Both the position numbers and the translations under genes were made by a program. Under the pieces are notes generated by a model, which saw only the letters and a program-made list of their open reading frames with translations, searched no databases and was not told where the DNA came from. Source: an uncultured bacterium (GTDB lineage Bacteria > Bacteroidota > Bacteroidia > Chitinophagales > CAIODY01). Taken from it: a DNA stretch of 64,000 bases. The DNA lies in assembly GCA_903857255.1 (NCBI GenBank), contig CAIODY010000013.1, forward strand, positions 5,406-69,405, written 5' to 3'. Below, piece by piece: positions 94 through 30,039 of this stretch (position 1 is its first letter; every line of letters begins with the position of its first letter).

Positions 94-1050
94 TTACAAC
101 ACTACCAATGCCCAGCTTCCATCCAGCGTAGCCGATACATTATACACATTCAAATATTGCATCGTGTTTTCATCGCCCAAATCATTCAAGTTGCAAATAA
201 TGGTGTTGTGTGGTGCTACATGCACAAAACTTCCAGTAATTGCCCCATTATATGATGCTGCTAAATAAAATTTCAATTCATCATCGCCATTATTACTCAA
301 TTTTAATTGCGAATTCACATCCAATTTGCGCTTAATGATATTATGAATAGCCAATGGTTTTAAATTGCTACCTGTAAAATGTGTTTGTACTGCATTGCGA
401 AGCGTAGCTTCATCAAAATATTTTGCGCCTTGTTGGGGGTTGGTGCTGAAATGCGTTAATAGGCTACCATAATCAGCCAACATCAGTGCACACATATTAG
501 TAACGGCTGTTTTCATTGCCGCACTCATATTGGTGGTAGTAGTTTTTGAGATGCCTTTTGTACTAAAATTGGTAGTTAAAGTGTTATAATAAGTTTGAAT
601 TGTACCTTTTAAAGTAGTCAAAGCAGCATCAGAGCCTATGGCTGCTAATAAAGCACCCACAGCAGTCATTCGGGCTTGCTGACTGCCTTGTAAAAAAGGC
701 GAATGCCCATTAGGGAATAAAGCTTTATAACGAGCTGTGCCTTTAGCATAATGTATTTGTGCATTAGCATCCCAAGCGTTTACATTAGTTGTCATATCAG
801 CCAATGCCAAATTAAAAGCTTCTACATCACCCTGCTGCAATTGGTCTTGCCCTTTATTGGCATCATTAGCTGTTAATAATGCTTGATGCACCACATTAAA
901 TGGCGTATAAAGCCCTAATATAAACGGATTACCTACGCTATCAGCAAATAAAGCATCATGATGAAAAGTGCTGATTTGAATAGCCTTGGGTGCGCTATTT
1001 TCTACTGCATTAAAAAAAATGTTTTCAAACAAACTCCATGGTTGGCTCAT
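94..1050 (-). CDS. Uncharacterised 318-aa protein; predicted helical N-terminal/central region (Y-x-x-LFPNG motif) and beta-rich C-terminal ~100 aa
   Basis: Long ORF with an A-rich leader and a Bacteroidota -33/-7 promoter upstream; no recognisable catalytic motif or signal peptide. Confidence 0.8.
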   Translation of the reverse strand: MSQPWSLFENIFFNAVENSAPKAIQISTFHHDALFADSVGNPFILGLYTPFNVVHQALLTANDANKGQDQLQQGDVEAFNLALADMTTNVNAWDANAQIHYAKGTARYKALFPNGHSPFLQGSQQARMTAVGALLAAIGSDAALTTLKGTIQTYYNTLTTNFSTKGISKTTTTNMSAAMKTAVTNMCALMLADYGSLLTHFSTNPQQGAKYFDEATLRNAVQTHFTGSNLKPLAIHNIIKRKLDVNSQLKLSNNGDDELKFYLAASYNGAITGSFVHVAPHNTIICNLNDLGDENTMQYLNVYNVSATLDGSWALVVL

Positions 1051-1125: not shown

Positions 1126-1157
1126 CAAAAATAAAAAACAGTTTTTAAATTTCCAAA
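1126..1157 (-). promoter_or_regulatory. Bacteroidota sigma70-type promoter for the 318-aa gene
   Basis: Minus strand TTTG (1157-1154), 20-nt spacer, TATTTTTG (1133-1126); matches the -33/-7 consensus. Confidence 0.6.
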
Positions 1158-1236
1158 AAATATTTTTTAATTTATTTTTTACCCAAATTAGCCATCCTGA
1201 TTCAATGCCTTTAGTTTTAGAAATTCTAATTTTTAT

Positions 1237-1478
1237 AAATGTTTACGGAAGCAATTTTTTTTAAGAATTACCTCCGTAATGTTTTACGGGTGTAGTTTTT
1301 TTTAAAAATTGCTTCCGTAATGTTTTACGGGTGTAGTTTTTTTTAAAAAGTCTGCCAATAATGTTTTACGGGAGCAATTTTTTTTAAAAAGTCTGCCAAT
1401 AATGTTTTACGGGAGCAATTTTTTTTAAAAATTGCTTCCGTAATGTTTTACGAGAGTAGTTTTTTTAAAAAATTGGAT
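1237..1478. repeat. Tandem array of six ~41-bp palindromic units
   Basis: Units start at 1237, 1277, 1318, 1359, 1400 and 1441; consensus TAATGTTTTACG-(7 variable)-T8A5-(9 variable); unit 5 forms a hairpin ACGGGAGCAATTTTT/AAAAATTGCTTCCGT. Confidence 0.95.
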
Positions 1479-28122: not shown

Positions 28123-30039
28123 TTACTTTTTTTCGTCTTTCACTTCTTCAAAAGCTACATCTTCTACATTGTCGCTTTTGTTTTCAGCCGATGGATTGCC
28201 TTCAGCATTTGGTTGTGCACCAGCAGCTTGTTGTTCGTTCATCGCTTTGTATAATTCTTCTGAAGCAGCCATCCAAGCATCATTCAAAGTTTTCAAATTA
28301 GTTTCGATAGCAGCGATGTCTTGTGCTGTGTGTGCTATTTTTAATTCAGCTAAAGCTGCTTCAATAGCCGCTTTTTTATCAGCACTTAATTTTTCGCCGT
28401 ATTCTTTCAACTGTTTTTCAGTTTGGAAAATATTGCTATCTGCTTCGTTTAATTTTTCAACTCTTTCTTTTTCTTTTTTATCTGATTCTTCGTTGGCTTT
28501 AGCTTCAGCTTTCATTTTTTCAACTTCTTCTTTGCTCAAACCTGTTGAAGATTCAATGCGGATTGATTGAGATTTGTTAGTGCCTTTATCCAAAGCGCTG
28601 ATGCTCATGATACCATTTGCATCAATATCAAAACTCACTTCAATTTGTGGCAAACCACGTGGAGCAGGTGGAATTCCATCTAAATGGAAACGACCTAATG
28701 TTCTGTTATCCTTTGCCATGGCTCGTTCGCCTTGTAACACATGAATTTCAACACTTGGTTGTCCATCGCTGGCAGTTGAAAAAGTTTGCGATTTTTTTGT
28801 AGGAATAGTAGTGTTCGATTCAATTAATCGAGTCATTACACCGCCCATTGTTTCGATGCCCACTGATAAAGGTGTAACATCCAACAACAATACATCTTTC
28901 ACTTCGCCAGTTAAAACACCACCTTGAATAGCAGCACCAATCGCAACCACTTCATCAGGATTAACACCTTTTGATGGTTTTTTTCCGAAGAATTTTTCAA
29001 CCATTTCTACCACTTTTGGGATACGAGTTGAACCACCTACTAATAATATTTCGTCAATTTGTGAAGTGCTGTAACCTGCATCAGCAATAGCTTTTTTGCA
29101 AGGTTCCATCATTCTTGAAAATAAATCATCGCACAATTGTTCAAATTTTGCACGAGTTAATTTTTTAACCAAATGCTTAGGCACACCATCAACAGCAGTG
29201 ATATAAGGCAAGTTGATTTCAGTTTCGTTAGAAGATGATAATTCAACTTTAGCTTTTTCAGCAGCTTCTTTCAAGCGTTGTAAAGCCATTGGGTCTTTTC
29301 TCAAATCCATTCTTTCTTCAGCTTGAAATTCATCAGCTAACCAAGTGATAATTTTTTGGTCGAAGTCATCACCACCTAAGTGTGTATCACCATTTGTTGA
29401 TTTTACTTCGAATACGCCATCACCCAAATCCAATACTGAAATATCGAAAGTGCCACCACCTAAGTCGAACACAGCCACTTTCATGTCTTTATGTGCTTTA
29501 TCCAAGCCATAAGCCAAAGCCGCAGCAGTAGGTTCGTTGATGATACGCATTACTTTCAAACCAGCAATTTCGCCAGCTTCTTTAGTAGCCTGACGTTGAC
29601 TATCATTAAAGTAAGCAGGTACTGTGATTACAGCTTCTGTTACTGTAGTTCCTAAATAATCTTCAGCAGTTTTTTTCATTTTTTGCAAAACGATAGCTGA
29701 AATTTCTTGCGGTGAATATTTTCTGTCGCCAATTTCGATTCTGCAAGAATCGCCATCACCAGCCACCACTTTGTATGGCATTTTAGCAGCTTCACCTTTT
29801 GATTCGCTGAAACGTGCACCCATAAAACGTTTTACTGATGCTACAGTGTTTGTTGGATTGGTAATAGCCTGACGTTTTGCAGGGTCACCCACTTTACGTT
29901 CGCCATTAGCCAAGAAACCAATGATAGAAGGTGTTGTTCTTCTGCCTTCGTCATTAGCAATTACAACAGGCTCGTTGCCTTCCATTACGGATACGCAGCT
30001 GTTGGTTGTTCCTAAATCGATTCCGATAATTTTTCCCAT
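28123..30039 (-). CDS. dnaK: Chaperone DnaK
   Basis: [25 protein letters not shown]. Confidence 0.99.

Follow-up and report, generated by a model that had tools for sequence, protein, structure and literature searches.

Introduction

REP/BIME elements are alternately inverted intergenic palindromes that expand by duplication, and REPs occur as hundreds of dispersed copies of one family which are mobilised by RAYT transposases. The array that we describe here likewise consists of alternately inverted palindromic units in intergenic DNA. A second kind of comparison is offered by phased operators: ARG boxes are 18-bp palindromes at a 21-bp step, LytTR sites are 9-bp repeats at a 21-bp step, and tandem pho boxes belong to the same group. 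With these our array shares the two-turn step, the dyad-symmetric sites and the location upstream of or at a promoter. It differs from them in having 12 half-sites over ~240 bp where they have 2-4, in a sequence that differs completely between loci at fixed period, and in that no regulator is linked to the array. Third, the centromere sopC of the F plasmid comprises 12 x 43 bp with an inverted repeat in each. The ~42-bp period with an internal dyad and the unit number are similar, whereas the array studied here lies on the chromosome, as one among dozens of different arrays in a genome, and partition genes are absent from its vicinity.

Two further systems are closer in layout or in host. TIGR arrays (PMC12045711) have 5-15 units of 36 nt, each with two 8-12-nt repeats and two diverse ~9-nt spacers, and adjoin a Nop-domain Tas gene; the repeats of TasR arrays begin with UG, end with CCA and are box C/D-like. 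The likeness to our array lies in two constant blocks that alternate with two short variable blocks. BrickBuilt of Porphyromonas gingivalis (PMC4596501) is one sequence family of 23 nt that has a leader, a tail and terminal inverted repeats; it is found at many loci, often beside T9SS-cargo genes, and has reported promoter activity. Our arrays, too, are intergenic Bacteroidota minisatellites with a unit of ~20 nt; in contrast to BrickBuilt as described there, they have periods of 21, 41 and 42 bp, many unrelated unit sequences and no common flanks.

For period-locked arrays of 21, 41 or 42 bp in Bacteroidota we found no published account among the papers that our searches listed, judged by title or abstract. 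In the following we describe one such array in genome G000 (2.97 Mb, 35% G+C, 96.9% complete), which probably represents a form of gene-control DNA that has not been described before, rather than an array of guide RNAs.

Anatomy of the 41-bp array

The window, i.e., the whole stretch of 64 kb that was analysed, corresponds to G000:C13:5406-69405, and positions without a contig name refer to it. The features needed first are:

1236..1478, no strand assigned, tandem array of six 41-bp units, seen in the sequence, by TRF and as inverted repeats
94..1050, minus strand, 318-aa orphan gene downstream of the array, an ORF with a predicted N-terminal long-helix bundle and C-terminal jelly-roll
1126..1157, minus strand, promoter-like element TTTG-N20-TATTTTTG, a motif match between the array and the 318-aa gene

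The six units follow each other head-to-tail, with starts at 1236, 1277, 1318, 1359, 1400 and 1441, and TRF reports a period of 41, 5.8 copies, 87% matches and a score of 297. Every unit comes close to a palindrome, with two inverted halves of ~20.5 bp. Of its dyad centres, A falls inside CCGTAA-TGTT-TTACGG and B inside the T8A5 block, 20.5 bp apart, and 7/8 and 6/8 pairs are formed at the two centres. The blocks of the 41-nt unit measure 12, 7, 13 and 9 nt, those of 7 and 9 nt being the variable ones. Unit 1 deviates by a block displaced by 1 nt and by AAGAA, unit 6 by T7A6 and a degenerate right arm.

Most of what a preliminary description had read from the letters is in good agreement with these data. 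The palindromic 41-bp array is real; the variants given for the left and right arms all match the sequence exactly, as do its constant blocks (TAATGTTTTACG and T8A5), the left variants GAAGCAA, GGTGTAG, GGTGTAG, GGAGCAA, GGAGCAA and AGAGTAG are correct, and units 2-5 do present the four combinations of two left with two right variants. That unit 5 alone can form a full hairpin is correct for Watson-Crick pairs, but no longer once G-T/G-U pairs are allowed on the + strand: by hand pairing, unit 2 then pairs at 8/9 arm positions, and the unit 5 hairpin itself includes one G-T. As regards the alternative reading as ~12 alternately inverted half-sites AAAAA-N9-TAA, the lattice exists, although ten of the sites are exact (1243 to 1464) and the other two are degenerate. 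Strands alternate from 1284 onward; the first two half-sites, at 1243 and 1284, share the minus strand, since unit 1 has no plus-strand site. The 64-kb window as a whole contains this motif 39 times, compared with 29.9 expected. No ORF of at least 40 aa spans the array, which was rightly called non-coding, and the view that it is no CRISPR is upheld as well.

The resemblance to TIGR arrays that had been pointed out does not carry over to the details. A TIGR-like dual-spacer guide-RNA array would account for the superficial match in layout, constant/variable/constant/variable in six units. However, the unit is 41 nt and not 36 nt, and each variable block comes in 3-4 alleles that are mutually complementary and exactly duplicated. 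The constant blocks are without the UG...CCA motifs of TasR arrays (PMC12045711). Furthermore, the Nop domain PF01798 gave no match in the 96.9%-complete genome G000, with a positive control in four archaea. We therefore give this explanation next to no credence.

Origin of the arm combinations

Two stretches of the array are perfectly 41-periodic:

1273..1349, no strand assigned, block I with arms a-b-a, offset-41 exact identity over 1273-1308 (36 nt)
1337..1431, no strand assigned, block II with arms c-d-c-d, offset-41 exact identity over 1337-1390 (54 nt)

They are two recent exact duplications in different registers. The central arm order of the array is a-b-a-c-d-c-d-b, and the boundaries of the c-d-c-d duplication fall in the T8A5 block, half a unit off the 41-bp unit frame used above. 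With slippage between the constant blocks, or unequal exchange between them, in two registers, all four left/right combinations arise, and no extra shuffling process is needed. The independent shuffling of left and right arms which had been proposed is dispensable, as the two overlapping 41-bp duplications explain the arm combinations, and this speaks against the more exotic readings.

Such duplications are also what one expects of a functionless or selfish minisatellite with a locked period, which would arise by slippage and unequal crossing-over, be copied occasionally to new intergenic sites and be tolerated upstream of genes, in the manner of BIME clusters or of the BrickBuilt minisatellite-MITE. 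We consider this explanation unlikely, and return to it wherever the evidence bears on it. A first point against it is that the period is locked at 21, 41 or 42 bp across unrelated sequences; 41 is not a codon multiple, so that a coding constraint on the period is excluded. The more specific suggestion of a slippage-expanded REP is not supported, since the constant block is not dispersed: it is exact only in the focal array, and matches with one mismatch are fewer than in a reversed-pattern control. The RAYT-like genes of the genome, at C64 and C134, are flanked by different hairpins that are unrelated to the array, which argues against the minisatellite explanation, too.

Position upstream of a predicted promoter

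The array is flanked by two minus-strand genes, one SAM-methyltransferase-like (1541-2269) and the other the 318-aa ORF (94-1050), and ends ~185 bp upstream of the ATG of the latter at window position 1050. Neighbours at the locus are the methyltransferase, a membrane protein and an FBPase. This setting bears on the possibility of a centromere-like or iteron array (sopC, parC or Rep-iteron type) that serves partition or replication, for which the geometry, with dyads every ~41-43 bp and 6-12 units, would be similar to that of sopC. None of the adjacent genes is a Par or Rep gene. ParB-, CBP- or Rep-type genes were found neither at the focal locus nor among 20 neighbouring proteins scanned at related loci, where the neighbours are heterogeneous. 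As 43 arrays of different sequence lie on many chromosomal contigs of this genome (see below), we hold a role in partition or replication to be very improbable.

The element at 1126-1157 on the minus strand fits the Bacteroidota -33/-7 promoter consensus. Seven matches to this motif occur in the window and 7.05 are expected, so that the match by itself is weak evidence. The block 1126-1157 is, however, the best-conserved stretch in an alignment of the upstream regions of the focal gene and its same-genus relative G404:C7. A conserved promoter-like block between array and gene puts the array upstream of the predicted promoter and, on this evidence, outside the predicted mRNA of the 318-aa gene.

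This conserved block is the first of several points that weigh against an element acting at the RNA level. According to this explanation the array would be transcribed, by read-through from the methyltransferase gene or divergently, and the chain of hairpins would be an insulator or terminator, a stabiliser or a small-RNA precursor. Both strands indeed fold far better than dinucleotide shuffles (z of -8.7 and -8.0), and three terminator-like sites (hairpin plus T-run) are found on the + strand, compared with 0.6 expected. By hand pairing, G-T wobbles favour the gene-antisense strand in the focal, C134 and G404:C6 arrays, and in 8 out of 13 arrays the fold of the antisense strand is the more stable one by over 10 kcal/mol. 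On the other hand, the z-scores are alike on both strands and the folding gap of 18 kcal/mol between the strands of the focal array is seen in shuffles as well, so that it is compositional. The sense strand is strongly favoured in two of the 13 arrays and three are neutral, hence there is no consistent preference.

Further observations point in the same direction. A promoter-like element for the + strand was not seen by eye in the sequence of the array region, and no Rfam family matches; all matches remain far below the gathering score, and those below threshold are miRNA-precursor families, as expected for any long hairpin. Conservation of the upstream neighbour, on the methyltransferase side of the array, does not extend to G404:C7. 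A dyad is lacking altogether in some arrays of the class described below (L046), and neither a Piwi nor a Nop gene was found in G000. With the Piwi domain not found there, a link to Argonaute that had been under consideration was dropped. All in all, we regard an RNA-level element as rather improbable.

The 318-aa protein family

The 318-aa protein has no significant match in Pfam, PHROGs or NCBIfam, and nothing in Pfam at E<=1. Among 41 family members no Pfam family is matched except for three isolated weak cases; DUF6261 was considered as identity and rejected, as 0 of the 41 match it at E<=0.01. Judging from these sequence comparisons, it is a separate family for which the searched libraries contain no model. 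With a profile built from the protein and its first relatives, 1146 cluster representatives are collected at E<=1e-3, nearly all of ~316 aa, and the neighbours in the ESM Atlas are hypothetical Bacteroidota clusters only. Twelve contigs carry a protein identical to the focal one. The distribution is patchy: 5 of 401 genomes sampled across the phylum carry the family and 13 of 151 sampled within the order. It is a multi-copy family with up to 14 copies per genome.

In a confident AlphaFold2 model based on the 41-sequence alignment (pLDDT 94.6), residues 11-218 form a bundle of very long helices and residues 224-317 an eight-stranded jelly-roll. The modelled jelly-roll resembles PirA and Ena pilus subunits with Z of 9.4 and 8.5. 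For the helical part the matches are generic folds only (chemoreceptor sensor domains, SipB, BAR domains) at Z of 8-9, which is too low to indicate anything beyond a common arrangement. Foldseek with the model returned nothing at E<=0.001, and the best E-value in a sequence search of solved structures was 0.061.

Among the fold matches of the model no DNA-binding fold was seen, and related array sequences precede unrelated genes (see below). The 318-aa product is thus, as far as the model goes, unlikely to be the reader of its own array.

Linkage of arrays to the family

From the phylum sample 18 family loci were available; three begin at a contig end and were left out, so that 15 could be judged. 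Upstream of ten of these 15, TRF finds an array with a period of 41 or 42 bp, once of 21 bp. The third paralogue in G000 has a decayed 42-bp array that TRF missed, with autocorrelations of 0.471 at offset 42 and 0.448 at offset 84, the 95% value of the null being 0.367. The remaining four loci (L030, L043, L033 and L038) are without an upstream array; at three of them a 41- or 84-bp array is located just downstream instead. All three further loci from the same genus have an upstream array. Taken together, 14 out of 18 evaluable family loci carry an upstream array of 41/42 bp (once 21 bp). For comparison, the genome-wide rate in G000 is ~43 arrays per 2397 crude ORF calls. This linkage speaks against a functionless minisatellite, whereas the decay at the third paralogue is in keeping with one.

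Unit sequences of distant family loci are unrelated, and what stays is the period of 41-42 bp. The arrays comprise 3.1 to 7.3 units of 41/42 bp, or 12.4 units of 21 bp, and extend over ~130-300 bp, typically ~240 bp.

Conservation in congeners and reuse at other loci

Homologous arrays do exist elsewhere, in G000 itself as well as in a genome of the same genus. At G404:C7, where the homologue shares 49% identity with the focal gene, a related 41-bp array (7.3 units) is located 206 bp upstream of it. Six units each make up the array of the C134 paralogue (G000:C134) and its counterpart at the corresponding locus G406:C26, with an identity of 84% between the two. In this pair every unit shows the substitutions specific to its species, which points to concerted evolution. 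One of the differences is symmetric within the dyad, from CGGAA..TTCCG to CGTAA..TTACG; since both half-sites have changed alike, the dyad symmetry is maintained while the sequence moves. Orthologous arrays in congeners thus retain their position, and in this pair the unit number is kept. Equal unit number at corresponding loci, together with the symmetric dyad change, is a further argument against a functionless minisatellite.

Array sequence families are present at several loci, as a minisatellite copied to new sites would be. A three-unit relic of the focal type, now decayed, is found at G000:C23:8025-8165 upstream of a TPR-PD40-OmpA gene. At G404:C6 a gap of 1.3 kb is filled by ~13 units related to the focal and G404:C7 arrays; ~7 of them share 74% identity with the focal array, and next to these lies a second sub-array with a 41-bp period. 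Downstream of this array field come a small ORF and an arsC-like gene, and the 318-aa family is not represented there. Arrays of the C134 type are found again at C27/C84, before a different secreted protein. Both the relic and the field without a family gene count in favour of the minisatellite explanation. For its BrickBuilt-like form one would expect ends of its own; homology between arrays of one family, in contrast, ends at the array edges (C13/C23, C134/C27, C37/C67/C98, C62/C70), and the copies at different loci have no shared leader, tail or terminal inverted repeats of the kind reported for BrickBuilt (PMC4596501). According to our own reading of the gene contexts, the array has one and the same polarity towards its downstream gene within C13/C23, C134/C27 and C37/C98, the partner gene at C67 being ambiguous. 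This pattern of reuse, as far as sequence comparison goes, looks more like shared cis elements of regulons than like a MITE with its own ends.

Beyond these genomes, a metagenome scan for the two constant blocks 41 bp apart returned one locus (L047), an unrelated 21-bp satellite. Scanning the genome collection with a degenerate constant-block pattern returned four loci, one of them an array of the same 41-bp type and three chance or REP-like.

A genome-wide class of period-locked arrays

A census by TRF on G000 (at least 2.8 copies, period of at least 10 bp) yields 69 arrays. The period is 21 bp in 34 of them, 42 bp in six, 41 bp in one and 20 bp in two, which makes 43 arrays of the class. Their unit sequences are many (at least 20 different ones), some dyad-symmetric and some not, and a k-mer search for a motif common to all arrays returned only motifs shared by subsets. 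The focal array is almost certainly a local member of this period-locked class, which has a step of ~20.5-21 bp and periods of 21, 41 and 42 bp: its period is 41, it is non-coding, it lies upstream of an orphan family, and its units are unrelated between distant loci.

Among the genes next to the arrays in G000 are those of T9SS cargo proteins and of several small orphan families, in which a helical N-terminal part is combined with a tail that is FN3-like or CarboxypepD_reg-like; on the far side there are also housekeeping genes. T9SS sorting domains are numerous in this genome and, together with the ESM Atlas neighbours, mark it as Bacteroidota. Comparison by hhalign of 11 other array-adjacent proteins of G000 with the 318-aa family revealed no similarity, all probabilities being below 1%. 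Another array-associated protein (L026) matched in 3 of 401 genomes phylum-wide, by a search that is too insensitive to give a profile.

By context, 17 of the 43 arrays are in tandem, eight in divergent and two in convergent gaps, seven at contig ends and nine inside ORFs that are probably spurious. The many arrays at contig ends (7/43) would suit a minisatellite. Convergent contexts make up 2 of the 27 classifiable arrays compared with 70 of 659 background intergenic regions, which is no difference.

For comparison, 400 kb from each of three other genomes were sampled:

G167, same order, complete genome, 318-aa family found, period-21/42 arrays 6 of 21
G407, same family, 318-aa family not found, period-21/42 arrays 2 of 10
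G039, same order, 318-aa family not found, period-21/42 arrays 1 of 8, weak

The class is thus abundant in G000 and in some relatives. Four of the six G167 arrays are in apparently convergent gaps, according to crude ORF calls; two of these four were checked down to ORFs of 35 aa. Some arrays of the class are accordingly not upstream of any evident gene, and these gaps are a further point for the minisatellite explanation.

Proposed function

Among the possibilities raised by the preliminary description, a multi-site protein-binding array is the one that we retain as the best reading. We propose that the array is a helically phased, protein-binding cis-regulatory platform which is located upstream of the promoter and acts on double-stranded DNA, and we give this proposal about an even chance of being right. 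The twelve alternately inverted half-units form a ~240-bp lattice of dyad-symmetric sites, all of which lie on one face of the helix, with two turns per half-unit. This lattice is positioned upstream of the predicted -33/-7 promoter of the 318-aa gene. A putative, probably dimeric DNA-binding factor may load cooperatively onto the phased lattice and would in this way tune the adjacent promoter. Binding by a protein, its cooperativity and the effect on regulation are what we infer.

Several observations favour the phased platform, among them the genome-wide excess of such periods and the reuse of array sequences in front of other genes. A first one is the position upstream of the conserved promoter-like block, together with the tight linkage of gene and array. 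Others are a fixed helical step, a symmetric dyad change and a conserved polarity. Finally, folding carries no strand-specific signal, with equal z-scores and a mixed preference for sense and antisense. The proposal is weakened by the presence of only two LytTR genes and by those arrays that have no downstream gene. We also count against it that the gene context of the arrays is like the background, that the promoter motif occurs at chance frequency, and that arrays without a dyad belong to the class.

A wider version of this proposal, which we put forward tentatively and at clearly less than even chances, concerns the class as a whole. The conserved cis information might be the helical step (~20.5-21 bp) and the total length (~240 bp) and not the sequence. 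It could be read by a factor that measures phase, or by the mechanics of the DNA itself, with cruciform or supercoil sensing at the alternating dyads. The genes under such control would be the helix-bundle plus jelly-roll/FN3 orphan genes and the T9SS-cargo genes, and the array sequence families would be regulons.

If they are functional, the arrays would mark a widespread, unstudied layer of gene control in Bacteroidota, with dozens of arrays per genome that are tied to large protein families of unknown function. To this class the present locus adds a fully palindromic 41-bp variant and a new associated protein family. Two more additions are a conserved promoter-like block, according to which the predicted transcript does not include the array lying upstream of it, and a dyad that has changed symmetrically between congeners. 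The period of 21, 41 or 42 bp is a simple signature by which linked genes and regulators can be searched for. In practical terms, arrays of this kind break short-read assemblies and can be mistaken for CRISPR- or TIGR-like arrays; as 21 and 42 are codon multiples, they also create spurious ORFs.

As regards candidate regulators, a model with one LytTR regulator per array would be difficult to uphold, since G000 has two LytTR genes for 43 arrays with at least 20 different sequences. The units of the focal array are moreover inverted, whereas LytTR repeats are direct. At one family locus (L032), a LytTR response regulator is located just downstream of the family gene.

Arrays at related loci and their neighbouring genes

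Two adjoining sub-arrays with different relatives are found in a genome of the same genus (G404), on a contig (C6) other than the one that carries the homologue of the 318-aa focal gene (C7).

L049:1195-1725 (G404:C6), two adjoining 41-bp sub-arrays, approximately 13 units in total

The sub-arrays lie within a 1.3-kb gap that holds few ORFs. Of the two, one is a relative of the focal array, and the other is an inverted-orientation relative of the array at the focal-gene homologue on C7. These sequence relationships suggest mosaic exchange between arrays.

Two further loci outside the focal genome link arrays with genes.

L032:430-1182 (G089:C29), LytTR response-regulator gene, directly downstream of a member of the 318-aa family
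L046:509-766 (G167, same order), 21-bp x 12.4 array lacking dyad symmetry, located 47 bp 5' of the gene for a 324-aa protein

The family member at L032 carries a 42-bp x 6.6 array, and among the related loci a LytTR response regulator directly 3' of the family gene was seen here alone. The 324-aa protein at L046 has only the C-terminal jelly-roll in common with the 318-aa family, and thus this tail domain may be the common feature of array-linked genes.

Downstream of the 318-aa gene itself, a second gene follows after a gap of 147 bp.

G000:C13:2713-5352, same strand as the 318-aa gene, gene of an 879-aa protein, just left of the window

The two genes may be co-transcribed. By eye, the C-terminus of the 879-aa protein has the appearance of a T9SS type-B (CHU_C-like) domain, and its C47 paralogue has a 21-bp array upstream as well.

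RAYT-like transposase genes

Two IS200-like (RAYT-like) tyrosine-transposase genes were found in the focal genome.

L019:346-900 (G000:C64), weak Pfam Y1_Tnp match, HUH and Y motifs visible in the translation
G000:C134:9876-10427, second gene of this type

Each is bracketed by its own inverted hairpins, one on either side, and in this respect resembles a REPtron. These hairpins are not related to the 21/42-bp arrays; nevertheless, the C64 gene lies 154 bp from one of these arrays.

Other short-period repeats

L047:980-1545, 20-21-bp satellite of approximately 28 units on an unrelated metagenome contig
Window 1133-1173, two-copy repeat with a unit of approximately 21-22 bp (TRF period 21 x 1.9)
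Window 28437-28490, short period-21 array (2.6 copies, 66% matches)

The satellite units contain the focal constant block by coincidence, and the flanking DNA holds no long ORFs. The two-copy repeat overlaps the promoter-like block that separates the focal array from the 318-aa gene.
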